A DNA stretch of 64,000 nt from an uncultured bacterium (GTDB lineage Bacteria; Acidobacteriota; Thermoanaerobaculia; Multivoradales; JAHZIX01): contig CBDUPA010000005.1 of the NCBI GenBank assembly GCA_965368975.1, positions 32,001 to 96,000 on the forward strand. Direction: 5' to 3'. The notes beneath the pieces were generated by a model that had not been told where the DNA came from, did no database searches, and saw nothing but the letters and a program-made list of their open reading frames with translations. Below, piece after piece: positions 39,080 to 60,134 of this stretch; position 1 is the first letter of the stretch, and every line of letters begins with the position of its first letter. The position numbers and the translations under genes were made by a program.

Positions 39080-39262
39080 TTAGTCGCCGTCTGGCCCGAG
39101 GTTGGTGACGTCAGTGCCGCCACCCGTGATCTCAGGAGTTGTGGTCGGATCGGAATCATCGCGACCACCACCGCCGAGGATATTGCGAAGGTCCTCGGCA
39201 AGTACGCGGGCCAGAACGCGACCGGAGCGGGGATGCTGCAATTGAGCAACGTTCTTACGCAT
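39080..39262 (-). CDS. 60-aa graspetide precursor MRKNVAQLQHPRSGRVLARVLAEDLRNILGG-GGRDDSDPTTTPEITGGGTDVTNLGPDGD
   Basis: AAAGGAG RBS before ATG 39262; directly upstream of the ATP-grasp gene; helical leader RVLARVLAEDL, GG site, Thr/Asp-rich core. Confidence 0.88.
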   Translation of the reverse strand: MRKNVAQLQHPRSGRVLARVLAEDLRNILGGGGRDDSDPTTTPEITGGGTDVTNLGPDGD

Positions 39263-39470
39263 GGCTGCTCCTTTCAAGGTGAGTGAAGGACGCGGGCGAA
39301 CCGCGATTCCTCCGTATTCAAAGCCACTCCCGTGGGCGCGTCCGTTATTCGGACTCGTCTATACCTACGTAGAACAAGCCTCTGGGGTATACCGTGGATT
39401 CCTGGTTTTACAGTTTTTTGCAACTCGCGGTTTTCGGAGGCAGGCATGCGGGTGCGCTAAGATCGCGGCA

Positions 39471-40760
<1,290 letters not shown>

Positions 40761-40762
40761 CG

Positions 40763-41362
40763 ATGAGCGACGGCACCGATGGCATCACCGAGATCCTTCG
40801 AGAGTGGTGCGGCGGGACGCCGGAAGCGCTCGAGAAGCTCATGCCGCTGGTCTTCGGGGAGCTACGCAAGCTGGCGCGCTCACACTTCCGGCGCGAACCG
40901 TCCGGCCATACGCTACAGCCGACGGCCCTGGTCAACGAGGTCTATCTGCGCCTAGAGCGGCAGATGCACGTGCAACTGATCAACCGCACGCAGTTCTTCG
41001 CCTTCGCCTCGCGCCTGATGCGCCGCATCCTAGTCGACCACCACCGAACACGGCAGGCGGAGAAGCGCGGGAACGGGCAAGTCCTGGTGACTCTCGACGA
41101 GGCTCTGCGCGGGGGCCGCGCCGCCGCCCGCGCGAGGACGATCGAGCGAGTCGATATCCTGGCGCTGGATGAGGCCTTGGAGTTGCTCAAGGAGCTGGAT
41201 CCACGGCAGTGCCGAGTCGTCGAGCTGCGTTACTTCGGGGGCTTGACGATTCCCGAGACAGCACAGGTGCTGGGCATTTCGCCGGCCACTGTCAAGCGCG
41301 AGTGGGCCGTTGCCAAGGCGTGGCTGCAGTATCGACTCCGTTCGCCGGGGGTGTCCGTGTGA
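40763..41362 (+). CDS. ECF sigma factor, TIGR02999 (kinase-associated) type
   Basis: ITEILREW, LMPLVFGELRKLA, HTLQPTALVNEVYLRL, MRRILVDH, VVELRYFGGL..ETAQVLGISPATVKREW. Confidence 0.92.
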   Translation: MSDGTDGITEILREWCGGTPEALEKLMPLVFGELRKLARSHFRREPSGHTLQPTALVNEVYLRLERQMHVQLINRTQFFAFASRLMRRILVDHHRTRQAEKRGNGQVLVTLDEALRGGRAAARARTIERVDILALDEALELLKELDPRQCRVVELRYFGGLTIPETAQVLGISPATVKREWAVAKAWLQYRLRSPGVSV

Positions 41363-43653
41363 CGCGCTGGGAACGTCTGAAGCAGGTTCTGGGTGCGGTG
41401 CTCGAGCTGCCGGCCGACGAGCGGCGCGCTTTCCTCGACGCTCACTGCAATGCTGAGCTGCGGCACGAGGTCGAAGCGATTCTCGATGCTCACCAGGACG
41501 AGGGCTTTCTGGAACAGCCGGTGATCGGCGATGACAGCCTGCTGCCGGCCGAGCGTGTCGGGCCGTACCGACTGCTGGGGCGTTTGGGTTCCGGCGGCAT
41601 GGGAGATGTCTTCTTGGCCGAGCAGGAAGAGCCCATCCGGCGCCGAGTGGCACTCAAGCTGATGCGTCCCGGTGCCTTCGGCGGAGCCGCCGCCGCGCGC
41701 TTCGAAATCGAGCGCCAAGCGCTGGCACGCATGCAGCATCCCAATATCGCGCGGGTGTTTGACGCTGGCGCCGTCGAGATCGACTCGATCTTGGGTGGCC
41801 CAACCGACCGCCGTTCCTTCTTCGTCATGGAGTTGATCAGTGGCCGTGCGATCACCCGCTATTGTGACGACGAAGCGCTCAGCCTGGAGCAGCGCCTGGA
41901 GCTCTTCGTCCAGGTTTGCCGGGGCGTCCAGCACGCCCACCAGAGAGGGATCATTCACCGCGACCTCAAGCCGTCGAACGTTCTGGTCCTTGAGGAAGAC
42001 GGCCGTCCGGTACCCAAGATCATTGACTTCGGCGTCGCCAAGGCCGTCGAGACCGTGGAGGCCGGAGCCTCCGCGCAGGGCCTCACTGCTGCCGGAGCCC
42101 TGACCGATAGCGGGGCTCTGACCGGCGCGGGGCAGTGGATCGGCACACCCGAGTATATGAGTCCGGAGCAAGCCGACGCCGGCGGCAGTGCGGTGGATAC
42201 GCGCGCTGACGTCTATGCGCTGGGCGCGTTGCTCTACGAGTTGCTGACTGGGTGGCAGCCCTTCGATCCCGAAGAGCTGCGCGGTGGCGATCTGCGGCAT
42301 CTTCGTGAAGTGCTGCGCACGCATGAGCCTGTGGCGCCGAGCCGGCGCGTCGATCCCGGCAGCGAGCGCGCGCGGCGGTTGCGCGGTGATCTCGACGCCA
42401 TTGTGTCAAAGGCTTTGGAGAAAGAGCCGGAGCGCCGCTTCGCCTCAGTGGTCGAGCTGGCGGCCGACATCCAGCGCCACCTGCATCACGAAGTGGTCAG
42501 CGCCGTACAACCGAGCCGCGGGTACCGGCTGAGCAAGTTCGTGCGTCGGCACAGGACCGGTGTGGCGACGGCGGTGGCAGTGGTGCTAGCTCTTGGGTTC
42601 GGGCTGGCAGCAGCGATGGTCGGCATGGTACGAACGCGAGATGCAGAAGCTGAGGCGCTGGTTCAAGCTGCGCTGGCAGAAGAGAAGGCGGCAACGGCCG
42701 AGCAGGTCACGCTCTTTCTTTTCGACTTGTTCGAAGCCGCCAATCCGTCGCGGGCACCCCGGCCGGAACTCACCTTGCGCGAGGTTCTGGACCGCGGAGC
42801 AGAGCGTGTGCGGGTGAAGTTGGCCGATCAGCCGGAAGCGCGCGGGCAGTTGCTGTTCACCATTGGCCGTTCTTACAAGGAGCTGGGTCTGTTCGATCAG
42901 GCGCGCGAGATGCTCGAAGAGTCTGTGGCGGTTCGGCGTGGTTGTTTCGGCGACGATCACCTGATGGTTGCCGAGAGCCTGCATGTTCTGAGTGCCGTGT
43001 ACATCGACCTGGCGCTCTTCGAGACTGCCCGCTCGACAGCGCGTGAGGCGTTGGAGATCCGCAGGCGTCACCTCGGCTCAGAGCATCTCCATATCGCTGG
43101 CACCCTGAACAACCTGGCGGTGATCCACAAGCGCCTGGGAGATCTCACCGAAGCGCGGCAAGACCTTGAACGCGCACTGACGATCTACGAAAGCCAGGGT
43201 GCCTCGGCGGCGCAGCGCGCCCAGGCGCTTGACAATCTCGGTCTCTTGCTGGCTGAGTCAGGGCAGCCGGCCCTGGCACGCCCTCATTTGCAGCGCGCTC
43301 TGGCCCTGCTTGAAGCCGAGTTCGGAGTCGACAGTGGCAGACTGTCCGGAACGCTCAACAATCTGGCACTGGTCGCGGCGGAGCTGGGTGACCATGCTGC
43401 CGCTCGGGACGAGTGGCGGCGGGTGCTCGACATCGACCGTCGAACCTACGGCGACGAGCATCCCTATATCGCCTTCGGCCACTTCAATCTGGGCAAGTTG
43501 GCCGAGGAAATGGGCCAGTGCGAGATCGCCGAGGAGCACCTACGTGCCGCCGTCGAGATTCTGCGTCAGCGCCTCCCTTCGGAGCACCCGAGGCTGCGTG
43601 AGGCCACAGACTACCTCGCATCCCTCTCAGCAGGCTGTGAGGCCGGATTTTGA
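41359..43653 (+). CDS. Membrane Ser/Thr protein kinase with extracytoplasmic TPR repeats
   Basis: GTG start overlapping the sigma stop; GSGGMG, VALK, HRDLKPSN, IIDFG, GTPEYMSPEQ; one TM helix; TPR repeats (TLNNLA). Confidence 0.92.
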   Translation: MTRWERLKQVLGAVLELPADERRAFLDAHCNAELRHEVEAILDAHQDEGFLEQPVIGDDSLLPAERVGPYRLLGRLGSGGMGDVFLAEQEEPIRRRVALKLMRPGAFGGAAAARFEIERQALARMQHPNIARVFDAGAVEIDSILGGPTDRRSFFVMELISGRAITRYCDDEALSLEQRLELFVQVCRGVQHAHQRGIIHRDLKPSNVLVLEEDGRPVPKIIDFGVAKAVETVEAGASAQGLTAAGALTDSGALTGAGQWIGTPEYMSPEQADAGGSAVDTRADVYALGALLYELLTGWQPFDPEELRGGDLRHLREVLRTHEPVAPSRRVDPGSERARRLRGDLDAIVSKALEKEPERRFASVVELAADIQRHLHHEVVSAVQPSRGYRLSKFVRRHRTGVATAVAVVLALGFGLAAAMVGMVRTRDAEAEALVQAALAEEKAATAEQVTLFLFDLFEAANPSRAPRPELTLREVLDRGAERVRVKLADQPEARGQLLFTIGRSYKELGLFDQAREMLEESVAVRRGCFGDDHLMVAESLHVLSAVYIDLALFETARSTAREALEIRRRHLGSEHLHIAGTLNNLAVIHKRLGDLTEARQDLERALTIYESQGASAAQRAQALDNLGLLLAESGQPALARPHLQRALALLEAEFGVDSGRLSGTLNNLALVAAELGDHAAARDEWRRVLDIDRRTYGDEHPYIAFGHFNLGKLAEEMGQCEIAEEHLRAAVEILRQRLPSEHPRLREATDYLASLSAGCEAGF

Positions 43654-45943: not shown

Positions 45944-47332
45944 TCAGATGTGAATCGCCCGGCCGTCGACCGCCAGCGCCGCTTCCTTGACGATCTCGGC
46001 GAGCGTCGGGTGGGCATGGGTGGAGCGGGCGATGTCTTCGGCGCTGGCGCTGAACTCGATGGCGACGGCGAGTTCGGCGATCAGGTCGCCGGCGTTGGCG
46101 CCGAGGATGTGAGCCCCGAGGAGACGGTCGGTGTCTTTGTGCGCCAGGAGCTTGACTTGACCTTCGGTGGCGCCGATGGCGCGGGCACGGCCGTTGGCCA
46201 TGTAGGGGAAGGTGCCCTTGGTGTAGGGGATGCCGGCGTCTTGGAGTTCTTCTTCGGTCTTGCCGGCGCAGGCGATCTCGGGGTAGGTGTAGACGACGCT
46301 GGGGATGGCGTCGTAGTTGACGTGGCCGTGGCCCTTGACGATGCCTTCGACGCAGGCGATGCCTTCGTCTTCGGCTTTGTGGGCGAGCATCGGGCCGGGA
46401 ATGACGTCGCCGATGGCGTAGTGGTTCTCGACGTTGGTGCGGAAGTGCTGGTCGACTTCGATGACGCCGCGGTCGGTGGTCGAGATGCCGGCTTTGTCGA
46501 GATCGAGGCCATCGGTGTTGGGTTTGCGACCGACGGCGACCAGGACGCGGTCGCACTCGATGGGATCGTTGCCCTCTGATTCGACGATGCACTTGTTCTT
46601 ATCGACCTTGGTACCCGTCACCTTGACGCCGAGCTTGAAGTCCATGCCCTGCTTCGTGAAGATCTTTTGCGCGCTCTTGGCCAGCTCGGCGTCCATGCCG
46701 GGCAGGATGCGGTCGAGGTATTCGAGCACGGTGACCTTGGCGCCCAGACGGTTCCACACGGAGCCGAGTTCGAGGCCGATGACGCCGGCGCCGATGACCA
46801 CCAGGTGACCGGGAACCTCGGGGTAGGAGAGGGCGGTGGTGGAGTCGCCGATGCGGTCGTCGTCGAACTCGATGCCGGGCAGGCCGGTGACCTTGGAGCC
46901 GGTGGCGACGATGACCTTGCCGGCCTCGATCGTGAGCTCATCCTTTCCGTCGACGCTCACCACGCCGGGGCCGTCGAAGCGCGCGTGCCCCTCGTAGCGT
47001 GTGATCTTGTTGCCCTTGAACAAGCCGGCCACACCCTTGGTCAGCAGGGTGACGGTCTTGTCCTTGTGCTTCATCATGCGAGCCAGGTCGAGCTCGACGC
47101 CGCTGACGCCGATGCCGAACTTCTTCAGCTCGTGCTGGGCTTCGTGGTACTTGTGGCTGGCTTCGAGCAGGGCTTTGGACGGGATGCATCCGACGCGCAG
47201 GCAGGTGCCGCCGAGGGCGCTTTCTTTCTCGACGCAGGCGACGTCGAGGCCCAGTTGAGCGGCGCGGATGGCGGCGACATAGCCGCCCGGGCCGGCGCCG
47301 AGGACCAGCAGATCGTGCTTGGCTTGTTTCAT
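45944..47332 (-). CDS. lpdA: Dihydrolipoyl dehydrogenase (E3)
   Basis: GAGPGGYVAAIRAAQLG, GGTCLRVGCIPSK, GAGVIGLELG, HAHPTLAE. Confidence 0.97.
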   Translation of the reverse strand: MKQAKHDLLVLGAGPGGYVAAIRAAQLGLDVACVEKESALGGTCLRVGCIPSKALLEASHKYHEAQHELKKFGIGVSGVELDLARMMKHKDKTVTLLTKGVAGLFKGNKITRYEGHARFDGPGVVSVDGKDELTIEAGKVIVATGSKVTGLPGIEFDDDRIGDSTTALSYPEVPGHLVVIGAGVIGLELGSVWNRLGAKVTVLEYLDRILPGMDAELAKSAQKIFTKQGMDFKLGVKVTGTKVDKNKCIVESEGNDPIECDRVLVAVGRKPNTDGLDLDKAGISTTDRGVIEVDQHFRTNVENHYAIGDVIPGPMLAHKAEDEGIACVEGIVKGHGHVNYDAIPSVVYTYPEIACAGKTEEELQDAGIPYTKGTFPYMANGRARAIGATEGQVKLLAHKDTDRLLGAHILGANAGDLIAELAVAIEFSASAEDIARSTHAHPTLAEIVKEAALAVDGRAIHI

Positions 47333-47342
47333 GATGTCTCTC

Positions 47343-48599
47343 TTAGGCTTCGATCAGCATGCGGGCCGGATCTTCGATGCAGTCCTTGACGCGCACCAGG
47401 AAGGTGACGGCTTCGCGGCCGTCGACCAGGCGGTGGTCGTAGGTGAGGGCGACGTACATGATCGGGCGGATGACGACTTCACCGTCGATGGCGACCGGGC
47501 GCTGCTGGATGTTGTGCATGCCCAGGATGCCGCTTTGCGGCGGGTTGACGATCGGCGTCGACAGCATGGAGCCGTAAATGCCGCCGTTGCTGATGGTGAA
47601 GGTACCGCCCTGCAACTCGTCGGCAGTCAGGCTGCCGTCCTTGGCCTTGCCGGCCAGTTCGCCGATGGTCTGCTCGACCCCGGCGAAGCTGAGACGCTCG
47701 GCGTTGCGAATCACCGGCACCACCAGGCCTTGACCGCCGCCTACCGCGACGCCGATGTCGTAGTAGTTGTGGTAAAGGATCTTGCCGTCGTCGATGCGCG
47801 CATTCAGCGCGGGGATCTCTTTCAGGCCTTCGATCACCGCCTTGACGAAGAAGCTCATGAAGCCGAGCTTGATGCCGTGCTTCTTGACGAAGGCGTCCTG
47901 GTGCTGCTTGCGCAGGTTCATGACGGCCGACATGTCGACTTCGTTGAAGGTGGTGAGCAGCGCGGAGGTCTGCTGCGATTCGACCAGGCGCTCGGCGATG
48001 CGTCGACGCAGGGTCGTCATGCGCACGGCCTTTTGCTCGCGCGCGCCGCCAGGGGACGCCACGGCCGGCGATGCCGCGGCAGGCGATGCTGAGGGTGCCG
48101 CTTGCGGAGCTGTCTTCTGCTGTGCTGTCTTCTGCAGCGTCAAGTGACGTTGCACGTCTTCCTTCAGCAGACGGCCACCAGGGCCACTGGCTTCGACGTC
48201 GGCGGCGTCGAGGCCGGCCTCGTCGAGCAGGCGGCGTGCGGCGGGCATGACGCGCTCGTCGCTGGCTGTCTCGCCACCCTTGGCTTTGTCGCCGTCTTGG
48301 TCCTTCTCGGTGCTGGCCTTCTTCTGGTTGGCGCTGGCGCTATCTCCGGCAGTAGCGACTTCCCCCTCTTCCATCTTGCCAATGACCTCGCCGACCTCGG
48401 CTTCTTCGCCCTCTTGCTTGAGGATCTCGATCAGTGTGCCGGACACCGGCGCGGGCAGCTCGGTGGTGACCTTGTCGGTCTCGATAATGACGATCGTATC
48501 GTCGGCCTTGACCGATCCGCCGGGCTGGACTTGCCACTCGCCGATCACGACTTCGGTGATGGATTCACCCACGGAGGGGACTTTGAGTTCGATGGCCAT
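47343..48599 (-). CDS. sucB: 2-oxoglutarate dehydrogenase E2, dihydrolipoyl succinyltransferase
   Basis: Lipoyl [37 protein letters not shown]. Confidence 0.97.
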
Positions 48600-48614: not shown

Positions 48615-51600
48615 TCAGGCGGCGCGCAGGGCGGCGTCGATGAGTTCTTTCTGTTCTTTGTCGTGGGCGGCTTTAGAACCGGTCGCGGGGCTGGCGGAGG
48701 CGGGGCGGTAGATGCCTTGCAACTGCCTCTTGCCCAGGGCGCCGCCACCTGAGGCGCCACCGGTGAGATGAGCTTGCAGGAAGCGCCAGGCACCCATGTT
48801 CTCGGGCTCTTCTTGGACCCAGACGACGGGCTTGGATTCGGGGTAGACGTCGAGCACCTGGCGCAACTCGCCGGGTCGCAGGGGGTAGTACTGCTCGAGG
48901 CGCAGGATGGCGGTATCGTCGAGGCCGCGTTCAGTGCGGGCGGCGGTGAGGTCGTAGTAGACCTTGCCGCTGCACAGCAAGACCCGCTCGACCTTCTTCG
49001 GGTCGAGGCCGGTAGTGTCGGGCAGGATGCGCTGGAAGCGTCCGTTGGCCAGCTCGTCGAGGCTGGAGATGGCTTCCTTGTGGCGCAACAAGCTCTTGGG
49101 CGACATGACGATCAGCGGCTTGCGCAGGGGCCGGTGCACCTGACGGCGCAGGCAGTGGAAGAGCTGTGCCGGGGTGGTCAGATTCACCACCTGCAGGTTG
49201 TCCTCGGCGCACAGATTGAGGAAGCGCTCCAGGCGTGCGCTCGAGTGCTCGGGGCCTTGTCCTTCGAAGCCGTGTGGCAGCAGCATTGCCAGGCTGTTGA
49301 GCCGGTGCCACTTGTCTTCGCTGCTGGAGATGAACTGGTCGATGATCACCTGCGCGACGTTGACGAAGTCACCGAACTGCGCTTCCCACAGGGTCAAGCC
49401 ATCCGGGAAGTCGAGGCTGTAGCCGTACTCGAAGCCGGTTGGGCCGACTTCGGACAGCGGACTGTCCCAGACCTCGAAGCGTCCGGGCGGGCTGCTGACG
49501 TCGTCGAGGTGCTCGTGCAGGTACTGCAGCGGCAGGTAGAGACCACCGTCTTTCTGGTCGTGCAGCACCGCGTGGCGATGGCTGAAGGTGCCGCGGCCTG
49601 CATCCTGGCCACTCAAGCGCACCTGCTTGCCCTCGGTGAGGAGGGTCGCGAAGGCGAGCGCTTCGCCGGCCGCCCAGTCGAGCGGTCGTGCGCCGGCGGC
49701 CATGTCACGGCGGGCCTGCAGCAGAATGCGGCGCAGGGTCTTGTGGACCTCGAAGCCTTCCGGAACCTCGGTCTGAGCGCGCAGCAAAGCGCTCAGCCGC
49801 TCGGCGTCGACCCCGGTGTCGACATCCTCGACCTCGTGATCGATGTCGCCCTTGTAGGGGGTCCAGACGCCACCGCCGAAGTCGACGTCCGTATGCTCGT
49901 AATCGTCGCGGCGGGCTTCGTCGAGGGCCTTGTCCAGCAGCTCGTGGCGCTCTTTCTCGATGCTGTCGGCTTCTTCGGCGCTGACCTCACCGAGTTGCAG
50001 CAGGCTATCCAGGTAGCCCTCGCGCACCGACTTGCGCTGTGCAATCTTGTCGTACATCTGTGGCTGCGTGAACCATGGCTCGTCGCCTTCGTTGTGGCCG
50101 TAGCGACGGTAGCAGTACATGTCGATAATGACATCGCTGTCGAAGGTGCGGCGGTAGTCCATGGCGATGCGCAGCACCTGCGCCACCGCCTCGGGATGCT
50201 CGCCATTGACGTGGAAGACCGGCGTCTGCAGCATCTTGGCGACATCGGTGGCGTAGTGGCAGGAGCGGCCGCTCTCGGGCGGCGTGGTGAAGCCGACCTG
50301 GTTGTTGACGATGATGTGCAGAGTACCGCCGGTGCGGAAGCCGGGTAGCTTGCTCATGTTGAGCATTTCCTGCACCACGCCCTGGCCGGCGAAGGCGGCG
50401 TCGCCGTGGATCACCAGGCCCATGACGCGCTCGCGTCGGGCGCCGTCGCCGCGGCGGTCCTGTTTGGCGCGCACGCGGCCGAGGACCACGGGACCGACGA
50501 ACTCCAGGTGGCTGGGGTTGAAGCACAACGACAGATGAAGCTGCTTGTCGTTGGAGGTGGTGCGGTCCGAGCTGTAGCCGAGGTGGTACTTGACGTCGCC
50601 GCGGCCAAGGTACTTCTCCGGGTCCACATCCTCGAACTCGCGAAAGATGCGCGCCGCGCTCTTGCCCAGGATGTTGGCCATCACGTTGAGCCGGCCGCGG
50701 TGCGCCATGCCGATCACCACTTCCTCGACGCCGTGTTCGCCGGCTTCGTCGAGTGCTTGGTCGAGCAAGGGGATCAGGGTTTCGGCACCCTCGGCCGAGA
50801 AGCGCTTGGCGCCGCGGAACTTGTTGTGGATGAACTCTTCGAAGATCTGGGCGTCGGTGAGCTTGGTGAGAATGCGCAGTTGCTCGTCACGGCTCAATTT
50901 GCGCCGCTGCTCGGGGTCTTCCAGGCGCTCCTGCAACCAGCGTTTGGGCGCCGGGTCGTCGATGTGCATGTACTGGACGGCGATCGACTTGCAGTAGCTG
51001 GCTTCCAGGCGCTCGCGAATCTCACGTAGGGTGAGGAAGGTGGTGCCCGGGATGGTGGTGCTCGAGAAGACGGTGTCGAGGTCGTCCTCGCTGAGGTCCC
51101 ATTCTTCGAGCCGTAGCTCGGGAATGGTGTTGCGCTCGGGCGGGGGGCTCAGGGGATCGAGGTGGGCGAGCAGGTGGCCACGCACGCGGTAGACGCGGAT
51201 CAGCTGGTCGACGCGGTCTTGCTTGCGGTCGATGTCGCGGATGCGGGTCGACAGGCCGCGTAGCAGGCCGCGGGCCAGTGCCGGACGCTCGTTCAGGCGT
51301 GCCATCAGCACCTTGCCGGGCAGGCGCAGCAGACGGGTCGTGCCGCGGCACACGGCGTTGGCGATGCGCGGCTGCTGCTGCAACACGCCCAGCTCGCCTA
51401 CCATCATGCCGACACCGAGCTCGGCACGCACGCGGCCGTCGACGGTGATCACGACGCTACCGTCCAGCACCACGAACAGCGCTTCGCTCGCGTCGCCCTG
51501 GCGGAACAGCAGGTCACCGGAGGCGTACTCCAGCTCTCTGGCATGCTCGAGCAACTGGCGGATCTCGTCGTCCGGTAGGTCGTGGAAGAGGTCCAGGCTG

Positions 51601-51926
51601 TGCAGCGATGGCAGCAGGTCGCCGGTAATCGGCTCACGGCGTCGGGGTTGCGCCAGTTGGGCCGCCGGGGCCGTCTGGGCTGTCGGAGCTGCACCGGGAG
51701 GATTGAACAAGCTCGTCGCTGCGAACGGGGATCCGAAGCTGAGCTCGGAGGCATTGCCTGTGTCGACACTGCCGCCGCTGCTGCCGGCCGCGTCGTCGGC
51801 ACGCAGGCGCTCGAAGAGAGGGCGCCAGGCGGCGTCGACCGAATCGGGGTCGTCGCGGAAGCGTTGGTAGAGGGATTCGACGAAGGGGAGGTTGTCGCTG
51901 TTGAGCAGCTCGCCAAGTTCTCGCAT
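48615..51926 (-). CDS. sucA: 2-oxoglutarate dehydrogenase E1 with an inserted cyclic-nucleotide-binding domain (aa ~104-230)
   Basis: N-terminal ESLY..F..DP.SV..W; GMAHRGRLNV, GDVKYHLG, HGDAAFAGQG, SGQDAGRGTFSHRH, EGQGPEHSSARLER; extra CNB segment. Confidence 0.95.
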   Translation of the reverse strand: MRELGELLNSDNLPFVESLYQRFRDDPDSVDAAWRPLFERLRADDAAGSSGGSVDTGNASELSFGSPFAATSLFNPPGAAPTAQTAPAAQLAQPRRREPITGDLLPSLHSLDLFHDLPDDEIRQLLEHARELEYASGDLLFRQGDASEALFVVLDGSVVITVDGRVRAELGVGMMVGELGVLQQQPRIANAVCRGTTRLLRLPGKVLMARLNERPALARGLLRGLSTRIRDIDRKQDRVDQLIRVYRVRGHLLAHLDPLSPPPERNTIPELRLEEWDLSEDDLDTVFSSTTIPGTTFLTLREIRERLEASYCKSIAVQYMHIDDPAPKRWLQERLEDPEQRRKLSRDEQLRILTKLTDAQIFEEFIHNKFRGAKRFSAEGAETLIPLLDQALDEAGEHGVEEVVIGMAHRGRLNVMANILGKSAARIFREFEDVDPEKYLGRGDVKYHLGYSSDRTTSNDKQLHLSLCFNPSHLEFVGPVVLGRVRAKQDRRGDGARRERVMGLVIHGDAAFAGQGVVQEMLNMSKLPGFRTGGTLHIIVNNQVGFTTPPESGRSCHYATDVAKMLQTPVFHVNGEHPEAVAQVLRIAMDYRRTFDSDVIIDMYCYRRYGHNEGDEPWFTQPQMYDKIAQRKSVREGYLDSLLQLGEVSAEEADSIEKERHELLDKALDEARRDDYEHTDVDFGGGVWTPYKGDIDHEVEDVDTGVDAERLSALLRAQTEVPEGFEVHKTLRRILLQARRDMAAGARPLDWAAGEALAFATLLTEGKQVRLSGQDAGRGTFSHRHAVLHDQKDGGLYLPLQYLHEHLDDVSSPPGRFEVWDSPLSEVGPTGFEYGYSLDFPDGLTLWEAQFGDFVNVAQVIIDQFISSSEDKWHRLNSLAMLLPHGFEGQGPEHSSARLERFLNLCAEDNLQVVNLTTPAQLFHCLRRQVHRPLRKPLIVMSPKSLLRHKEAISSLDELANGRFQRILPDTTGLDPKKVERVLLCSGKVYYDLTAARTERGLDDTAILRLEQYYPLRPGELRQVLDVYPESKPVVWVQEEPENMGAWRFLQAHLTGGASGGGALGKRQLQGIYRPASASPATGSKAAHDKEQKELIDAALRAA

Positions 51927-52036
51927 CTCGGCGATTGTATCCGGAATCTTTTACTCCTGTCCCGCGGTAGTAGAGGGCAGGTACGGAGTATAGGTACGAT
52001 GTCGAAGTGCGCGAACCGGAGGAGGAACGGAGACTG

Positions 52037-53965
52037 ATGCAGATTCGATGCGATCGGACGCTCTCGGGAATTGTCAGGTCATTTTGGACACAGGTCTGGA
52101 CGCTGGCTCTGGTCTTGGTTGGGACGGCGGCGGTTCCCGCCCTGGGAAGTGCACTTCCATCCGAGGCAAGCCTGCCTTCCGAAGACGTGGTTTGGTGGCG
52201 CCTGGACACGCACAATTTCACGCTCTTCAGCTCCGCTGACCTGGCGGTCGCGGAGTCCGTTATCCTGGATCTCGAACGCCTGCGGGCGGTGCTGGCACGG
52301 CTGGGTGGCGAGAATTTGGAGCTGAACTCGCCGGTGCCGACCTACCTCTTTCTCTTCGCCGACGGAGAGAGTTTCGGGCCCTATACGCGTTGGAGGAGCA
52401 CGCAGCCTCAGAAAGCAGTCGCCGGCTTCTTCCTGCCCGGTCCGATCGCCAACTATGTCGCCATGCGCGGCGATCTCGGGGCCGAGCGCGCGTCCGAGGT
52501 GGTGTACCACGAGTACTTGCACTACTTGCTGGAGAGCAACTTTGCGGATGTACCTCTGTGGTTCAACGAGGGCTTGGCCGAGTTCTACAGCACCTTCCGT
52601 GTCACCCGCCGACACGTGGTGCTCGGCATGCCGATCCTTGATCATCTACGACGCTTGGAGAAACGGGGCTTGATGCCGCTGGACTTGCTCTTCGCCATCG
52701 ACAGCGACTCTGAGGTCTACCGGCAGCACAGCCTTCGTCGCGACACCTTCTATGCCCAGAGCTGGGCACTGGTGCATCACTTGCTGAACGACGAGCAGCG
52801 CCGGCCGCAGATTATGCAGTACTTGCAATTCCTGGCTGCCGACGTGCCGCTGCGAGATGCTTTCGATCAGGCATTCGGCGGTGACAGCTTCGCCACGTTG
52901 CGCGGCGAGGTGCAAATGGCGCTGGACAACCATCGCTTCCAAGCTACTTCCGTACCGCTGGTCGAGATCGGCCTGCTGGAGCCACCGGAGCTTCTGCGCC
53001 GGGAGCGCATGTCCCGTGCCGAAGTCCTCGTGCGGTTGGGTGACCTGCTGATCCAGCTGCGAGGTGTCGAGGCTCACGAGCCGCGCGAGTTCTTTAGTGC
53101 TGCTCTCGATCTCGACCCCGAGCACGGCCTCGCCTGGTTCGGTTTGGCCCAACTCAAGGAACGGGCGCTGAGCTGGGACGAAGCCGAGGTCCTGTACCGG
53201 CAGGCGGTGGAGCTGACACCGAATGATTTCCGGCCGTACTTCTTGCTCGCCAACAATCTGTTGCGTCCTTACAGCGGGCTGCGCATCTCCATGGGCGATG
53301 TGCAGGCAGAGGACCAGGCGCGTCTGCGCGAGGCGCGCATTTTGTACCGTCAAGCGCTGGAACTCAATCCGCGCTTCGGTGAAGCCTGGGGTGGTCTCGG
53401 GGCCAGCTGGCTGCTGGAAGAGCGACCTTCCCAGGAAGCCCTGGGGGCTCTCGATACGGCGCGCCGGTTACTGCCCGGCCGCAGCGATGTCACCTTCAAT
53501 CTGGCGGTGCTGCAGGCGCGCCTCGGTCGGCTCGACGTGGCTCGTACGCTGATCGAGCGTGAGTTGGAGCGTCCCGATGTCGATCCCAACCTGGCTCGTG
53601 GCGCACGCGAGGCCGTGCTGTGGGCCGAGGTTCGTCAGGCCGAGCGCTTGCTGACGGCGGGCCAGGTCGAGAAAGCCTTGGCTCTGCTCGAAGATGTCAC
53701 CAGCCGCGCCGAAGACCCGCAGCTGCAAGCACAGCTACGAGAGCATCTGGAGGCGGTTCGCTCGGCTGAGCACAACCCACTGCGGGCCGAGTATGAGCAA
53801 GCTGTCAGCACCATCGAACGCGGGCAGTACGAGCAAGCCGAGGAGCAGCTGGTGGCCATGCTCGAGAAATTGGGGCCGGAGCCCGCCGGCGAGCGCGAAC
53901 GTTCCTTGCGTCGTTGGGCCGAGACGCAGTTGGAAGCGGTGCGCTGGCTACGTGCTCGGCAGTGA
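52037..53965 (+). CDS. Secreted DUF1570/peptidase-MA-like HExxH domain + TPR protein
   Basis: Signal-like N-terminus; HEYLH, PLWFNEGLAE, FYAQSWALVH motifs; TPR repeats. Confidence 0.8.
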   Translation: MQIRCDRTLSGIVRSFWTQVWTLALVLVGTAAVPALGSALPSEASLPSEDVVWWRLDTHNFTLFSSADLAVAESVILDLERLRAVLARLGGENLELNSPVPTYLFLFADGESFGPYTRWRSTQPQKAVAGFFLPGPIANYVAMRGDLGAERASEVVYHEYLHYLLESNFADVPLWFNEGLAEFYSTFRVTRRHVVLGMPILDHLRRLEKRGLMPLDLLFAIDSDSEVYRQHSLRRDTFYAQSWALVHHLLNDEQRRPQIMQYLQFLAADVPLRDAFDQAFGGDSFATLRGEVQMALDNHRFQATSVPLVEIGLLEPPELLRRERMSRAEVLVRLGDLLIQLRGVEAHEPREFFSAALDLDPEHGLAWFGLAQLKERALSWDEAEVLYRQAVELTPNDFRPYFLLANNLLRPYSGLRISMGDVQAEDQARLREARILYRQALELNPRFGEAWGGLGASWLLEERPSQEALGALDTARRLLPGRSDVTFNLAVLQARLGRLDVARTLIERELERPDVDPNLARGAREAVLWAEVRQAERLLTAGQVEKALALLEDVTSRAEDPQLQAQLREHLEAVRSAEHNPLRAEYEQAVSTIERGQYEQAEEQLVAMLEKLGPEPAGERERSLRRWAETQLEAVRWLRARQ

Positions 53966-55253: not shown

Positions 55254-56081
55254 TTAGCGGTCTTGGGCTTCGCCGGTCATCGTCGGTGCGCGTACCGGCG
55301 CTACCTTGCGGCGTTCGAGGCCGTCCTCGGTCTTGGTGATCACGACGAGGTCTTGCAAGAACTCGCCGCCGCCGATCGGGATCACCATCTTACCGCCATC
55401 TTTGAGTTGGTCGAGTAGCGGTTGCGGAATAAAGGGGGGAGCGGCAGTGAGGATGATGGCGTCGAAGGGCGCTTGCGCCGGCCAGCCGTTGTAACCGTCG
55501 CCGATACGCACGTCGATGTTCGTAAAGCCCATGGTTGCCAGCCGTCGCCGGGCCAGGCGGCCGAGCACTTCGCTGATCTCGACCGTACACACCTGACGCG
55601 CCACGCGCGCCAGGACTGCAGTGTGGTAGCCCGAGCCAGTACCGATCTCCAGCACCTTCTCGTCACCGCTCAATTCGAGCAACTCGGTCATGCGCGCCAC
55701 CATGTAGGGCGGGTAGATGCTGGGCCCCTCGTGGCCCGCTCCGGTCAGTGGGATCGGCTCGTCCTCGTAGGCGCGGGCGCGCAGCCGGTCGGGGACGAAG
55801 AGGTGTCGCGGCACGTTCTCCATGGCTTCGAGCACGGACTCCTGCGAGATGCCGCGCGGGATGATCTGTTCCTGCACCATCATCTGCCGCAGGTCGCGCT
55901 GTGAGGGGTCGTCACCGAGAGTTCCGGGAGCCGCGGTCTGAGCCGCCGCGGGTTGCACAGTGGGTATTGCGAGCAGGCCGCAAACGAGCAGGCTGCAGAC
56001 AAGCCGGCCGGAGGAGAGGCAGCTCATCCACCGGGGTGCTGCGAGGCGTCCGGCGCCCACGGCCGGCTGGCGAGGACTCAC
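55254..56081 (-). CDS. pcm: Protein-L-isoaspartate O-methyltransferase homologue (divergent copy, signal-peptide-like N-terminus)
   Basis: VPRHLFVP, VLEIGTGSGY, GDGYNGW..APFDAIILTAA; GTGA overlap with upstream gene. Confidence 0.82.
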   Translation of the reverse strand: MSPRQPAVGAGRLAAPRWMSCLSSGRLVCSLLVCGLLAIPTVQPAAAQTAAPGTLGDDPSQRDLRQMMVQEQIIPRGISQESVLEAMENVPRHLFVPDRLRARAYEDEPIPLTGAGHEGPSIYPPYMVARMTELLELSGDEKVLEIGTGSGYHTAVLARVARQVCTVEISEVLGRLARRRLATMGFTNIDVRIGDGYNGWPAQAPFDAIILTAAPPFIPQPLLDQLKDGGKMVIPIGGGEFLQDLVVITKTEDGLERRKVAPVRAPTMTGEAQDR

Positions 56082-56944
56082 GGGGTTTCTTCCTCTCGGA
56101 CCTTGCCCGTCATGGGCACGAAGCGCACCGGACTGACGGTGCGTCGGCGGTAGCCGTCCTCCGTCTTGGTCAGCACGATCAGATCTTGCATGAAGTCACC
56201 CAGGGGGAGCACCAGTCGACCGCCCACGACCAACTGGTCGAGCAGCGGTTCCGGGATGCGTGGGGGTGCGGCGGTGAGCAAGATGGCGTCGAAGGGGGCG
56301 TGCTCGGGCCAGCCATCGTAGCCATCGCCAATGCGCGTGTGCACGTTGTCGTACCCCAGGCTTCGTAAGACCGTCGCCGCCCGCTGGCCTAGTGGTCCCA
56401 CGATCTCGATGGTGTAGACATCTTTGACCAGCTCAGCGAGGATTGCCGCTTGGTAGCCAGAGCCGGTGCCGATCTCGAGCACTTTGAAGTCGGGTTCCAG
56501 GGTCAGCAACTCGGTCATGGTAGCGACCACCAGCGGCTGCGAGATGGTCTGGTCCCAGCCGATCGGTAACGGGTAGTCCTCGTAGGCTTCGTCTCGCTGA
56601 TCCTCTGGCACGAACTCGTGTCGCGGCACGGTCTCCATGGCCCGCAGTACGCCGGGGTCCGTGATGCCACGGGCGCGGATCTGGTCGCTCACCATGCGCT
56701 GGCGAGCGAGGAGCGGGTCGGCGGGGGTATTGCTGTTCATGGTGAGCGGGGCGCTGGATGCACGTCGCTGCGGAGCCGCTATGAGCACCGTGGCCATCAG
56801 CAGTCCGGCGACCGCGAAGGCACTGCTGAGCAAGACCAGAGAAGTCCGAGCGCGGTCGCGGCGACGAAGCGGCCGTCCAGCCAGGCTGCGAGCCCTGCGC
56901 CGAGCGGTGCTTCGAGCGGTGCCATGACCGGCGGGACAGGTCAT
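56078..56944 (-). CDS. pcm: Protein-L-isoaspartate O-methyltransferase (canonical motifs, N-terminal hydrophobic helix)
   Basis: VPRHEFVP, QTISQP, VLEIGTGSGYQAA, APFDAILLTAA, VRFVPMTG; ATGA overlap with upstream gene. Confidence 0.9.
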   Translation of the reverse strand: MTCPAGHGTARSTARRRARSLAGRPLRRRDRARTSLVLLSSAFAVAGLLMATVLIAAPQRRASSAPLTMNSNTPADPLLARQRMVSDQIRARGITDPGVLRAMETVPRHEFVPEDQRDEAYEDYPLPIGWDQTISQPLVVATMTELLTLEPDFKVLEIGTGSGYQAAILAELVKDVYTIEIVGPLGQRAATVLRSLGYDNVHTRIGDGYDGWPEHAPFDAILLTAAPPRIPEPLLDQLVVGGRLVLPLGDFMQDLIVLTKTEDGYRRRTVSPVRFVPMTGKVREEETP

Positions 56945-58674
56945 GGGGAGGGGGTTTCCACGTCGCGCTGGAACACGATCTCTCCATCGACCAGGGTCAG
57001 GTCGACCTGTACCGAGGGGATCTCGCGAGCGTCTACGGTCATGATATCGCGCTCGAAGACCACGATGTCAGCCCGCTTGCCTGGGGCCAGGGAGCCGACC
57101 TCGCCGTCCAGGAACAGCGAGTACGCGGCGTCGAGCGTGAAGCCTCGCAGGGCTTCTTCCCGGCTCAGGCGCTCGTCCGGTAGCCAGCCACCTTCGGGTG
57201 CGCCGTTCGTATCCTGACGGGTCACGGCGGCATACAGGCCGAGACGCGGATCCGGATACTCGACCGGGAAGTCGCTGCCCAGCGCCAGGCGGCCGCCGGC
57301 GTCGAGTACCTTGCGCCAGGCGTAGGCACCCTCCAGTCGACGGTGCCCGACACGGTCGCCGGCCCACGGCATGTCCGAGGTGGCGTGGGTGGGCTGCATC
57401 GAAGCGATGATGCCGAGGCGAGCGAGGCGGGCGAGGTCGGAGGTGCGGGCGATCTGGACGTGCTCGATGCGGAAGCGCACTTCGGGCCGTGGCCGACCGT
57501 CGAAGGCGGCCTCGAGCGCGTCGAGCACCATCAAGTTGCCGCGGTCGCCGATCGCGTGGATGCCGACCTGGAAGCCTCGATCCAGGGCTTTGCGAGCCAC
57601 GTCGAGAACGTGGTCGCCACGGGTGGTCAGTAGGCCCAGGTTGCCGGCGTCGTCGCTGTAGGGCTCGACCAGCGCCGCGCCGCGGCTACCCAGAGCGCCG
57701 TCTCCGTAGAGCTTGATGCCGCGCACCTGCAGGCGTGCCTGGGGATCGAGCATCGGGCCGCGCTGGAACCAGGTGTCGAGCAGCTCGGCGTCGTCCGTCA
57801 GGAAGAGGGCGGCGCGCAGGGGCAATTCGTCGGCCTGGCGTAGCGTGTGGTAGGCCTCCAGGGTCGCGCCGCCGACACCCATGTCGGTGACCGTCGTCAG
57901 GCCGAGTCGCAGACAGGTCTGTGCCGCCAGCGTCAGCCTCCGTGTGCGATCCTCAAGGCTCGGCGCAGGTACGCGAGCGCCGACGACGTCCATGGCGTTG
58001 TCGATCAGGACGCCGGTCAGGGCTCCGTCGTCGTCACGCAGAAAGCGTCCGCCGGAAGGGTCTTTGAGAACCTCGGCGGAGTCCCCGGTGGGAAGGCCCA
58101 GCGCCACGAGTGCCGCTTGGTTGAGCAGCGCGGCGTGGCCGTCGACGCGCGTGGCCCACACAGGGTGTTCGGGCAGTGCCTCGGACAGGGACCGGTGGTG
58201 CGGAAAGTCCTTCTCCAGCCATCGGTTCTGATCCCAGCCGCGTCCCCGCACCCAGCTACCGACGGGCAGCGACTCGGCGGCCGCGCGCAGGCGCGCGATC
58301 ACCTCGTTGTAGCTTGCAGCTCCGGTCAAATCGACCTGCTCGAGCGCCGTGCCGAGATTCTCCAGGTGACTGTGTGCATCAATCAGGCCGGGGATGACGG
58401 TGCGTCCCTGCAACTCGACGATCCGCGTTTCGGCACCACGGAACCGGTTGGCCTGTGCGTCCGGGCCAACGAAGAGGATGCGTCCTCCCTGGATGACGAG
58501 GCTGCCTTCGATCCGTCCTGGCGGCTGGACAGGGTAGATCACGCCGCCGCGTAGGATGAGGTCGGCGGACGGTGGTGTGCTGGCGGTGGGGCTGGTAGCT
58601 CCACTCGTCGCCTGGGGCAACGTCAACAAGGCGAACGTCAAGGCAGCGGGGATCATTCTCATCGTCATCCTCAT
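56941..58674 (-). CDS. Secreted amidohydrolase (Amidohydro_3/YtcJ family)
   Basis: PGLIDAHSH, RVDGHA, IKLYGDGALGSRGA, HAIGDRGN, RIEHVQ, SMQPTHA, GSDFPVE, GKRAD; start uncertain (58674-58656). Confidence 0.9.
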   Translation of the reverse strand: MRMTMRMIPAALTFALLTLPQATSGATSPTASTPPSADLILRGGVIYPVQPPGRIEGSLVIQGGRILFVGPDAQANRFRGAETRIVELQGRTVIPGLIDAHSHLENLGTALEQVDLTGAASYNEVIARLRAAAESLPVGSWVRGRGWDQNRWLEKDFPHHRSLSEALPEHPVWATRVDGHAALLNQAALVALGLPTGDSAEVLKDPSGGRFLRDDDGALTGVLIDNAMDVVGARVPAPSLEDRTRRLTLAAQTCLRLGLTTVTDMGVGGATLEAYHTLRQADELPLRAALFLTDDAELLDTWFQRGPMLDPQARLQVRGIKLYGDGALGSRGAALVEPYSDDAGNLGLLTTRGDHVLDVARKALDRGFQVGIHAIGDRGNLMVLDALEAAFDGRPRPEVRFRIEHVQIARTSDLARLARLGIIASMQPTHATSDMPWAGDRVGHRRLEGAYAWRKVLDAGGRLALGSDFPVEYPDPRLGLYAAVTRQDTNGAPEGGWLPDERLSREEALRGFTLDAAYSLFLDGEVGSLAPGKRADIVVFERDIMTVDAREIPSVQVDLTLVDGEIVFQRDVETPSP

Positions 58675-58757
58675 GGAGTTCGTAGTGAAACGAGACTCCA
58701 TTCTCTGTTCTCGTACTGCAAAGAACAAGCCAGTGACCTGTAGTATTCTCCCAGTCC

Positions 58758-60134
58758 ATGAGTCCTCCGGATCCAGCCGTCTCTCCGTTTCCCAACCCTC
58801 AGCAAGTGCGTGACTTGTTGCGCCAGGTTTTGGAGACATCGCCCGCGGACTTCACGGAATTGGCCTGGCTCGGACGCACAAGCTGGCGCGCCACGACCAG
58901 TGCGAAGGTCGAGGCGATCGAAGACCCTCGGCAGGTTGTGCTGCTGCGGGTGGTCGAACGAGGGCGGGTTGGCCTGCAGCGACTTGGCGGCGTCGACATC
59001 GCGGACTTGCGAATGGCGGTGCGCCAAGCGCTGGCGCACGCACGGGCAGAACCGGTGACGTCGCCACACTTGCCGAAGACCAGCGATGCCGAGCGGGCAG
59101 CGCAGGCCCTGGGTACCGACGAACTCTATGATCACGGCTTGGCCGAGTTGGTGCCGGCCGGTGTGCCGGGGTTGCTGGCGTCGTACCTACGCCGACGACA
59201 GGCGGCGGCGCTGGACTGGACGCACGGCAGCCTGGTGGTGGTCAACAGCGGTGGTCTGGAGCGCCGCGTCGATGCCACCTGCGCGACCTTGCGCGTGGTT
59301 TGCGGCCGCGGGCCGCATGCCGGCTTGGCGGCGGCCTCGGGACGGACGCTTGACGACTTGGACCCGGCATCGGTGGTCGAGCGGGCGCAAGAGAGAGAGG
59401 CGGAAGGAACCGTCGAGCAACCCGTGCCGCCGACGGCGCCCCTCGTGCTGGCACCCGAGGTCGTGACGGTCTTGCTGTCGCAACTCAATCACTGTGCGCT
59501 CACCGCCAGTAGCTTCCTCGAGGGCAGCTCGCCGCTGGTGAACAAGCTGGGAGAAGCCTGTTTCGATTCTTCGCTTCATCTGTGGGACGACGGCATGGAC
59601 CAGGACGGTTTGCCGTTCCCGTGCGATCTGCGAGGGCATGGCAAGCGGCCGCTGGAGATCGTGGTCGATGGCGTCCTGCGGACACCGGCCGTCAATGACG
59701 TGCTTGCCGCGAGGCTCGGCGACAAGGCCGGCACGTCGAGCGAGGTGACGTGGGCTACGACACCGCACGCGGTGGACGGTGACGAAGCCCGCTTTTGCCA
59801 TCTGTTTCTGGGCGGCGGTGAGCGGCTCGAAGACGAGTTGGTGCAAGACCTCGAAGACGGCTACTACATCAGCTCGCTGTCGCGCGTCGAGTTTTTCCCT
59901 CACGAGAGCCGGTTGCCGTTCCGCGTCCGTCTGTGTGGCGTACGTCACATCCGCGACGGTCACTTCGCCGAGGCGTTGCCTGAGCTGGTGTGGGAAGACG
60001 ACTTACTGCGCGTGCTGCAGAAAGTCGAAGCCGTCGCGCGCGAGCCCGTCAGTCTGGCCTGGGGTGATGGCTTCCTTGGCGGCGTGACCGCGCCGGCACT
60101 GGTGGTGGTGGCGCAGGGACTGCGCGCAAGCTAG
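58758..60134 (+). CDS. TldD/PmbA family protein (PmbA/TldE-like, no HExxxH)
   Basis: N-terminal LRVV..GRVG, VLAPEVV, LHLWDDG, P.DLRG, IVVDGVL, IRDG..EAL, VTAPALVV. Confidence 0.75.
   Translation: MSPPDPAVSPFPNPQQVRDLLRQVLETSPADFTELAWLGRTSWRATTSAKVEAIEDPRQVVLLRVVERGRVGLQRLGGVDIADLRMAVRQALAHARAEPVTSPHLPKTSDAERAAQALGTDELYDHGLAELVPAGVPGLLASYLRRRQAAALDWTHGSLVVVNSGGLERRVDATCATLRVVCGRGPHAGLAAASGRTLDDLDPASVVERAQEREAEGTVEQPVPPTAPLVLAPEVVTVLLSQLNHCALTASSFLEGSSPLVNKLGEACFDSSLHLWDDGMDQDGLPFPCDLRGHGKRPLEIVVDGVLRTPAVNDVLAARLGDKAGTSSEVTWATTPHAVDGDEARFCHLFLGGGERLEDELVQDLEDGYYISSLSRVEFFPHESRLPFRVRLCGVRHIRDGHFAEALPELVWEDDLLRVLQKVEAVAREPVSLAWGDGFLGGVTAPALVVVAQGLRAS

Follow-up and report, generated by a model that had tools for sequence, protein, structure and literature searches.

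A cyclic-nucleotide-binding domain of canonical type inserted in the 2-oxoglutarate dehydrogenase E1 component (SucA) of uncultured bacteria: a putative second-messenger input to the tricarboxylic acid cycle

2-Oxoglutarate is where carbon oxidation and nitrogen assimilation part ways, and its dehydrogenase (ODH) is a textbook control point. The controls described for bacterial ODH are NADH, succinyl-CoA, acetyl-CoA, and AMP, with the FHA proteins GarA and OdhI acting as well in Actinobacteria. What, then, is a cyclic-nucleotide-binding (CNB) domain doing inside the E1 component (SucA, or E1o) encoded on a 64,000-nucleotide stretch of DNA from an uncultured acidobacterium of the order Multivoradales (GenBank assembly GCA_965368975.1, contig CBDUPA010000005.1, positions 32,001 to 96,000; hereafter the window)? 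We report that this domain belongs to a conserved architecture of single origin, that its predicted binding site is strongly constrained, and that it is joined to the catalytic core at a fixed distance through a predicted continuous helix. We propose, at about even odds (a probability of roughly 0.5), that E1o is gated allosterically by a cyclic nucleotide acting through the CNB domain and this junction helix.

On the side of the enzyme, the sequence places the CNB-bearing protein in the SucA/E1o family and predicts 2-oxoglutarate dehydrogenase activity. The sucA open reading frame (ORF; 48615-51926, minus strand) gives a stop-free translation of 1103 amino acids that scores 1217 bits against the NCBIfam SucA equivalog NF006914 (cut-off 764) and 1071 bits against TIGR00239 (cut-off 770). 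Each of these profiles matches in two stretches, the best covering approximately residues 230 to 1101, and the NF006914 match resumes at residue 230. Pfam places E1_dh at residues 362-677, Transket_pyr at 748-948, and OxoGdeHyase_C at 954-1100, all over their cut-offs, in a core made up of small helical, thiamine diphosphate (ThDP)-binding, pyrimidine-binding, and C-terminal domains. H507, G508, D509, A510, and A511, followed by N541, N542, and Q543, a stretch (HGDAA...NNQ) that we take to be the ThDP-binding motif, are invariant together with many other core residues across 13 aligned fused and unfused sequences (alignment A1). Directly downstream on the same strand lie sucB and lpdA with full Pfam domain sets, so that the rest of E1 and the sucB-lpdA operon are intact, as an earlier, model-made reading of the sequence (the first-pass annotation) had stated. 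A six-frame search of the whole genome (59 contigs, 99.3% complete) found one OxoGdeHyase_C match, that of this sucA, and because the fused protein is thus the sole SucA of a genome of such completeness, it is predicted to be a working housekeeping enzyme.

The inserted domain is equally well delimited (Table 1). Pfam detects cNMP_binding (PF00027) at residues 132-209 with 52.7 bits (cut-off 27.5; E value, 4.1e-14), rising to 58.2 bits in the six-frame genome search, and it does so between 2-oxogl_dehyd_N and E1_dh, just as the first-pass annotation had expected when it proposed that a complete CNB domain is inserted in frame in the SucA linker. The interval that it had assigned to the domain, 51237-51617 (minus strand), encodes precisely residues 104-230, and all of the peptides that it quoted (LDLFHDL, GDLLFRQGD, LFVVLDGSV, GMMVGELGVL, PRIANAV, LARGLLRGLSTRIR, and QDRVDQLIRVYRVRGH) are found in the translation. 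The helices of the N-terminal block are placed at residues 13-25 and 35-47 by a full-length structure model.

Table 1. Coordinates of sucA, its parts, and the downstream operon genes in the window
Feature	Position	Strand	Basis
sucA, 2-oxoglutarate dehydrogenase E1 with inserted CNB domain	48615..51926	-	1103 codons plus stop; Pfam, NCBIfam
N-terminal helix block, 2-oxogl_dehyd_N, residues 8-43	51798..51905	-	Pfam PF16078, 39 bits against a cut-off of 27
Low-complexity linker, residues 47-97, probably disordered, length varies among relatives	51636..51788	-	pLDDT (predicted local distance difference test), alignment A1
CNB domain, residues 104-230	51237..51617	-	Pfam PF00027, PDB matches, AlphaFold2, Foldseek
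Phosphate-binding cassette GELGVLQQQPRIANAVC, residues 177-193	51348..51398	-	Alignment with PKG CNB cassettes; conservation
Single continuous predicted helix, residues 215-253, from CNB C-helix to first E1o core helix	51168..51284	-	Models, fixed spacing
E1o catalytic core, residues 236-1103	48618..51221	-	Pfam; PDB sequence matches
sucB (E2o): lipoyl, E3-binding, and acyltransferase domains	47343..48599	-	Pfam
lpdA (E3, dihydrolipoyl dehydrogenase)	45944..47332	-	Pfam Pyr_redox_2 and Pyr_redox_dim

CNB-SucA is not unique to this genome; to judge from the sequences collected, the design is shared across a lineage of uncultured bacteria, the only organisms from which it is known. Among 40 related genomes, all five others of the same family have a SucA match spanning the insert, and so do three of four genomes in one further family of the order (f6) and the single genome of another (f12); SucA without the insert occurs in one f6 genome (G029) and in a fourth family, f8. 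When 400 genomes were sampled evenly across the phylum and five candidates scored in each, at least two more genomes showed a match through CNB and core. We also scanned GTDB species representatives using a 12-row alignment of the junction region as the query and keeping the best 80 loci, at least 36 of which encode CNB plus core. All 36 are titled as metagenome-assembled genomes, attributed to Myxococcota/Myxococcales/'Deltaproteobacteria', to Acidobacteriota (Thermoanaerobaculia, Vicinamibacteria, Holophagae, and 'Ca. Multivoradales'), to Acidiferrobacterales (two), and, by label, to 'Enterobacteriaceae' (one). Four of these loci duplicate ones already collected, leaving 44 distinct fused sequences from independent assemblies, over which all conservation counts below were made; contigs of 2.0, 5.2, and 7.3 Mb are among them.

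Protein-level searches gave a concordant picture. When residues 100-330 were used to query a word index of 5.8 billion protein clusters, all 57 clusters matching at an E value of 1e-30 or below carry PF00027 plus E1_dh; public annotation conceals the CNB domain, as the source names available for 16 of these clusters all read plainly '2-oxoglutarate dehydrogenase E1 component'. The same kind of search with residues 45-245 returned one other fused protein among 12 matches. A representative search with the 12-row profile retrieved mostly proteins with many tandem CNB domains, and 12 of the 150 matches listed cover the whole profile in a single stretch; the ESM Atlas, searched with SucA residues 1-340, gave no usable match. 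Public sequencing runs cover the locus thinly: the four DNA runs listed contain at most 0.09 of the words sampled from the stretch in question, and no RNA run is listed. The first-pass annotation had pointed to coverage across both junctions, and this was obtained in part. The junction between CNB and core is bridged by a 798-base soil-metagenome contig (92% identical, with 32 differences over 402 aligned bases), and among sequencing-run pieces at 85% likeness none spans the whole stretch and none lies over the N-terminal junction near 51617. One genome (G061) carries two CNB-SucA genes, L013:689-3961 (-) and L015:2-2722 (-), the second of which runs off the contig end and starts directly at the CNB domain, lacking the 2-oxogl_dehyd_N helix.

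A tree of the catalytic core argues for a true, ancient in-frame fusion of single origin. It was built with FastTree for 83 rows (42 fused, 41 unfused), using the protein from the first core helix onward and leaving out four duplicates, two fused sequences that were too short or masked (L015 and L020), and six short unfused fragments; support is given as FastTree's local Shimodaira-Hasegawa-like values. All 42 fused rows fall inside one clade of 46 with a support of 96, and the fused or unfused label changes 5 times on the tree versus a mean of 27.9 in shuffles. The remaining four members of that clade (L010, L052, L062, and L082) are unfused and nested among fused sequences. Three of them, when inspected, had a short linker after a normal N-terminal helix, and L010 looks alike in alignment A1, so that in all four the domain seems to have been lost cleanly and secondarily. 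The unfused SucA proteins of family f8 (L011 and L012, from genomes G031 and G040 of the same order) fall outside the fused clade, where they adjoin sequences titled Terriglobia and Planctomycetota. This conflict between the sucA tree and taxonomy suggests that sucA was transferred or replaced between lineages.

Is the inserted domain still a sensor? Its sequence identifies it as a complete domain of the canonical cyclic nucleotide monophosphate (cNMP) type and a putative cNMP binder. A PDB sequence search matched it to the CNB domains of PKG, the PKA regulatory subunit, CRP-family proteins, SthK, Epac, and 4ava, and its cassette, GELGVLQQQPRIA, aligns to GERALLYDEPR(S/T)A of PKG. An AlphaFold2 model of residues 98-325, made from a 40-row alignment, reached a pLDDT of 90.4, with strands and helices in the order expected of an eight-stranded CNB beta-barrel that has flanking helices and a C-terminal helix, and Foldseek returned a probability of 1.00 for the modelled region against CNB domains of CRP, PKA-R, PKG, HCN, and MloK1. 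The Gly-Glu and Pro-Arg pairs of the cassette, which the first-pass annotation had read as retained, are indeed present as Gly177-Glu178 and Pro186-Arg187, along with A189 and G144, the last being the equivalent of PKA Gly169.

The same positions hold across the fused clade: G177, E178, and A189 are kept in 44/44 sequences, R187 in 41/44, and P186 in 40/44, and further CNB glycines are nearly as constant (G156, 44/44; G173, 43/44; G144, 40/43). In the available portion of the survey by Kannan et al. (2007; PMC2246266), Arg209 is the phosphate anchor and Gly169 is co-conserved with Arg209 in cAMP binders. Table 1 of that survey, which covers 30 families, gives canonical bacterial cNMP motifs such as GEMALLDGEPRSATVVA ('Other_bacterial') and GEMALLDGGPRSADAVA, and the clade consensus, GELAVLDxQPRSADAVA, is close to both; NtcA, FNR, CooA-type, and other non-cNMP sensors are given divergent cassette motifs there. 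Thus, the sensor looks functional, with a predicted binding site under strong constraint.

The attachment of this sensor to the enzyme is also constrained. In 42 of the 44 fused sequences the cassette Gly and the His of the core motif RGH are exactly 75 residues apart, the exceptions being L015, with 76, and L020, which is masked at that place. In the AlphaFold2 model m7cae1307dfee a helix at positions 118-156 corresponds to SucA residues 215-253, in a block with a pLDDT of 93-97, and the full-length SucA model has the same junction helix at 215-249. Upstream, residues 47-93 have a pLDDT below 50 in the full-length model and show gaps and length variation in alignment A1. A homodimer prediction for the CNB-junction region (alignment A3) scored 0.14 against a mark of 0.42, which weighs neither for nor against a CRP-like pairing of the CNB domains.

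In PDB matches the core starts at residue 4 of the 868-residue Mycobacterium smegmatis KGD (MsKGD) chains (2xta and 6i2r), at residue 249 of 2xt6, at residue 370 of the Corynebacterium glutamicum OdhA chain 8p5t, and at residue 85 of Escherichia coli 2jgd. These aligned chain starts indicate that the CNB domain uses the same insertion point at which Actinobacteria place another domain. According to the available text of the OdhA study (PMC10415282), E1o is an obligate dimer, a linker of 17 residues connects the fused E2o of OdhA to its E1o part, whose first element is the small helical domain (Asp367-Thr448), and OdhA/KGD adopts resting and active conformations, the active one being favored by acetyl-CoA and the resting one being held by OdhI/GarA. 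By analogy, then, the CNB domain is attached to a type of enzyme known to be conformationally switchable.

Considering these data, we propose the following model for gating, in which cAMP or cGMP from the host's class III cyclase(s) would bind the canonical cassette and reposition the CNB C-helix. Since the C-helix is predicted to run on without a break into the first core helix, with the register fixed, its movement could be carried to the E1o small helical domain. E1o would then shift between states of low and high activity, tuning the flux of 2-oxoglutarate into succinyl-CoA. We infer each part of this scheme: which ligand is involved, that it binds, that binding is relayed to the core, and in which direction activity changes. 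The C-helix moves upon ligand binding in other CNB proteins, and in PKA, Epac, and mycobacterial Pat, all CNB-linked enzymes, activation occurs by relief of autoinhibition; by analogy, we lean slightly toward cNMP activating E1o in the same manner. A more specific version, which we hold tentatively and at a little under even odds, is an in-line cNMP switch of the resting and active states of E1o through a rigid helix, that is, a valve by which a second messenger would act directly on the 2-oxoglutarate node, with a role akin to that of GarA/OdhI plus acetyl-CoA.

The genome holds a candidate source of such a messenger, in the form of predicted class III cyclase(s). On another contig, L096:696-2348 (+) encodes a 550-residue protein with FHA (22-85), GAF (180-320), and class III cyclase (368-546) domains, the last matching Guanylate_cyc with 96 bits, and a second, weak cyclase-like match reaches 22-25 bits. 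There are 10 cNMP_binding matches over the cut-off in the genome. Near sucA, no cyclase or phosphodiesterase gene was found among the 14 neighboring ORFs scanned (39-64 kb). A cyclase that reads phospho-threonine thus coexists with an ODH bearing a cNMP sensor, and actinobacterial ODH is regulated directly by an FHA protein. A bolder extension of the proposal would be a pathway leading from Ser/Thr phosphorylation, via the FHA-GAF-cyclase, to cNMP and then to ODH.

Several observations weigh against cyclic-nucleotide gating. In 3 of the 44 fused sequences (L007, L008, and L051) Trp replaces the phosphate-anchoring Arg and the rest of the domain is kept, so that some members may work without a cyclic nucleotide. 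These three form a small subclade with PWSA or AWSA at this place, in which the 75-residue spacing is also kept. The four clean domain losses imply that the CNB domain is dispensable for ODH function as such, and together with the Arg-to-Trp variants they are the main facts at odds with an obligatory cNMP switch. The cassette of the window has Ile188 where the clade has Ser in 30/44; Asn190 likewise departs from the clade's mostly Asp. The full-length SucA model, built from a 13-row alignment, is of moderate quality (pLDDT, 66.9). Lastly, the alignments were drawn from one clade, and the conservation partly reflects shared descent.

Other roles for the domain were weighed against the same evidence. 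The CNB domain might bind a cyclic nucleotide and control assembly instead, with the N-terminal helix docking on the E2o/E3 core and E1o being recruited or released accordingly. Its placement, with the N-terminal helix block on one side and the core on the other, would suit this scenario, and the L015 paralog of genome G061, which lacks the N-terminal helix, indicates that the two parts can be uncoupled. However, it is the link from CNB to core that has a fixed length and is predicted to be helical, whereas the linker between N-terminal helix and CNB is variable and predicted to be disordered; the constraint therefore sits on the core side, and we consider control of assembly unlikely.

Similarly improbable, in our judgment, is that the domain is a sensor of some other ligand, whether another nucleotide or nucleoside or a metabolite of the TCA cycle or of nitrogen metabolism, such as 2-oxoglutarate. 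There are precedents for such ligands, since CooA binds heme (Kannan et al., 2007; PMC2246266) and trypanosome PKA binds nucleosides (PMC10959531), to go by the available parts of both papers, and the Arg-to-Trp variants could suit a different ligand, as could Ile188 and Asn190 of the window in place of the clade's Ser and Asp. In contrast, families with other ligands have noncanonical cassettes in the part of the survey available (PMC2246266), whereas nearly all CNB-SucA sequences (40-44 of 43-44) retain Gly-Glu, Arg, Ala, and the equivalent of Gly169. For 2-oxoglutarate in particular, which the first-pass annotation had raised by reference to NtcA, the comparison is unfavorable: the NtcA consensus, GVLSLLTGSDRFYHAVA, compared by eye, is unlike the SucA cassette, GELGVLQQQPRIANAVC, which matches the canonical cNMP type.

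The third alternative is that the domain is a structural module, a spacer or a dimerization element, working independently of any ligand. The long C-helix of CRP-family proteins is their dimer interface. The closest folds found by Foldseek belong to this family, and E1o is an obligate dimer in the available text of the OdhA study (PMC10415282); the replacement of Arg187 by Trp in 3/44 sequences without loss of the domain would also be consistent with a structural role. Such a role nevertheless fails to explain the invariance of exactly those residues that contact the cyclic phosphate and the ribose, and the four clean losses indicate that the enzyme does not need the CNB domain for its architecture, which leads us to regard it as quite unlikely. 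Finally, an assembly or binning chimera at the sucA locus, which might be suspected in a draft genome of 59 contigs so thinly covered by public runs and which the first-pass annotation had named as one way in which it could be wrong, is almost certainly not the explanation, because the same in-frame junctions recur in 44 distinct sequences from independent assemblies, GC content is even along sucA (0.62-0.71), and the soil contig bridges the junction with the core.

A few kilobases beyond lpdA, 41209-43653 (+) encodes an 814-residue Ser/Thr protein kinase with C-terminal TPR repeats. At 39261-40760 (+) lies a gene for a major facilitator superfamily transporter whose best Pfam match is Acatn (acetyl-CoA transporter 1 family; 89 bits). 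Divergent from sucA is a gene for a 652-residue DUF1570/peptidase-MA-like protein with TPR repeats (52007-53965, +). Farther on, two tandem paralogs of protein-L-isoaspartate O-methyltransferase with overlapping ends (55254-56081 and 56078-56944, both on the minus strand) lie downstream of a large Amidohydro_3 gene (56941-58839, -).

The sensor domain and the enzyme are each known; as far as sequence comparison goes, what is new is their conserved and undescribed combination. Full-text literature searches, whose cover leaves most subscription journals outside, found no paper describing a CNB domain fused to the 2-oxoglutarate dehydrogenase E1 component, which agrees with the first-pass annotation's impression that the architecture is undescribed. 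It is very probably listed in InterPro without comment. In the main text of the 2007 CNB survey (PMC2246266), the words 'dehydrogenase' and 'oxoglutarate' do not occur, and for no family among its 30 is a 2-oxoacid dehydrogenase given as the partner.

The presence of a CNB domain on the sole E1o of the genome suggests, on the strength of sequence and structure models, that a second messenger may act directly on a central step of the TCA cycle. If our proposal is true, a cAMP/cGMP sensor in E1o would be a new direct route from second-messenger signaling to TCA flux, and an enzyme of central metabolism would be added to the few in bacteria that a CNB domain is known to gate in cis. It would also offer a defined, expressible protein in which to study allosteric transmission from a CNB helix to a ThDP enzyme, for which the natural variants (the clean losses, the Arg-to-Trp cassettes, and the paralog without the N-terminal helix) are ready controls.

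How does CNB-SucA compare with known systems? With canonical E1o, as in E. coli (2jgd), it shares the N-terminal helix, linker, small helical, ThDP, transketolase-like, and C-terminal domains as well as the sucA-sucB-lpdA gene order. It differs in that a folded CNB domain of approximately 130 residues replaces the short variable linker, and for this reason the core starts at residue 236 rather than at residue 85. To our knowledge, canonical E1o is not known to respond to any cyclic nucleotide.

The CRP-family receptors provide the closest match for the sensor itself. The model of CNB plus helix finds its best structural matches among the cAMP receptors of this family (E values of 2e-11 to 7e-11; Foldseek probability, 1.00), such as Thermus thermophilus CAP (4ev0), GlxR with cAMP (4cyd and 3r6s), and Mycobacterium tuberculosis CRP, with which it shares the beta-barrel and the long C-terminal helix. 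In SucA, however, this helix is not followed by a helix-turn-helix (HTH) domain but runs into E1o instead. A CRP/FNR regulator was ruled out, given that no HTH family appears among the Pfam matches and that the NF008732 score, 33 bits, stays below the cut-off of 266.

A second relative is mycobacterial Pat (Rv0998/MSMEG_5458; 4ava), a cAMP-gated lysine acetyltransferase that serves as a model for direct control of an enzyme by cAMP. Here too, a bacterial CNB domain is fused in chain to an enzyme domain, and the match of SucA to 4ava has an E value of 4.5e-6; the effector in Pat, though, is a GNAT acetyltransferase acting on other enzymes and not an enzyme of the TCA cycle. Identity with Pat was ruled out by a score of 35 bits for NF058543 (cut-off 460), the match being confined to the CNB part of the profile (positions 1-88). 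The 'Bact_Pyrredox' family in the available part of the CNB survey (PMC2246266) likewise joins bacterial CNB domains to a redox enzyme domain, but there the CNB domains are in tandem and the enzyme is a pyridine nucleotide-disulfide oxidoreductase.

The most instructive comparison is with actinobacterial KGD/OdhA, in which, as described in the accessible text of the OdhA study (PMC10415282), an extra domain also lies directly before the E1o small helical domain and resting and active states are switched by signals. The corresponding profile, NF008907, scores 1158.6 against a cut-off of 878, yet its best stretch covers only profile positions 396-1240, and an OdhA-type fusion of E2o and E1o was ruled out, as Pfam finds no 2-oxoacid_dh domain in SucA and places it in the separate SucB. 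Thus, where Actinobacteria insert a catalytic E2o succinyltransferase on a 17-residue linker (PMC10415282, same portion), CNB-SucA carries a sensor on a predicted continuous helix, with a separate SucB serving as E2o; and where the regulator of KGD/OdhA is a separate phospho-dependent FHA protein together with acetyl-CoA, the putative regulator of CNB-SucA would be built into the E1o chain itself.

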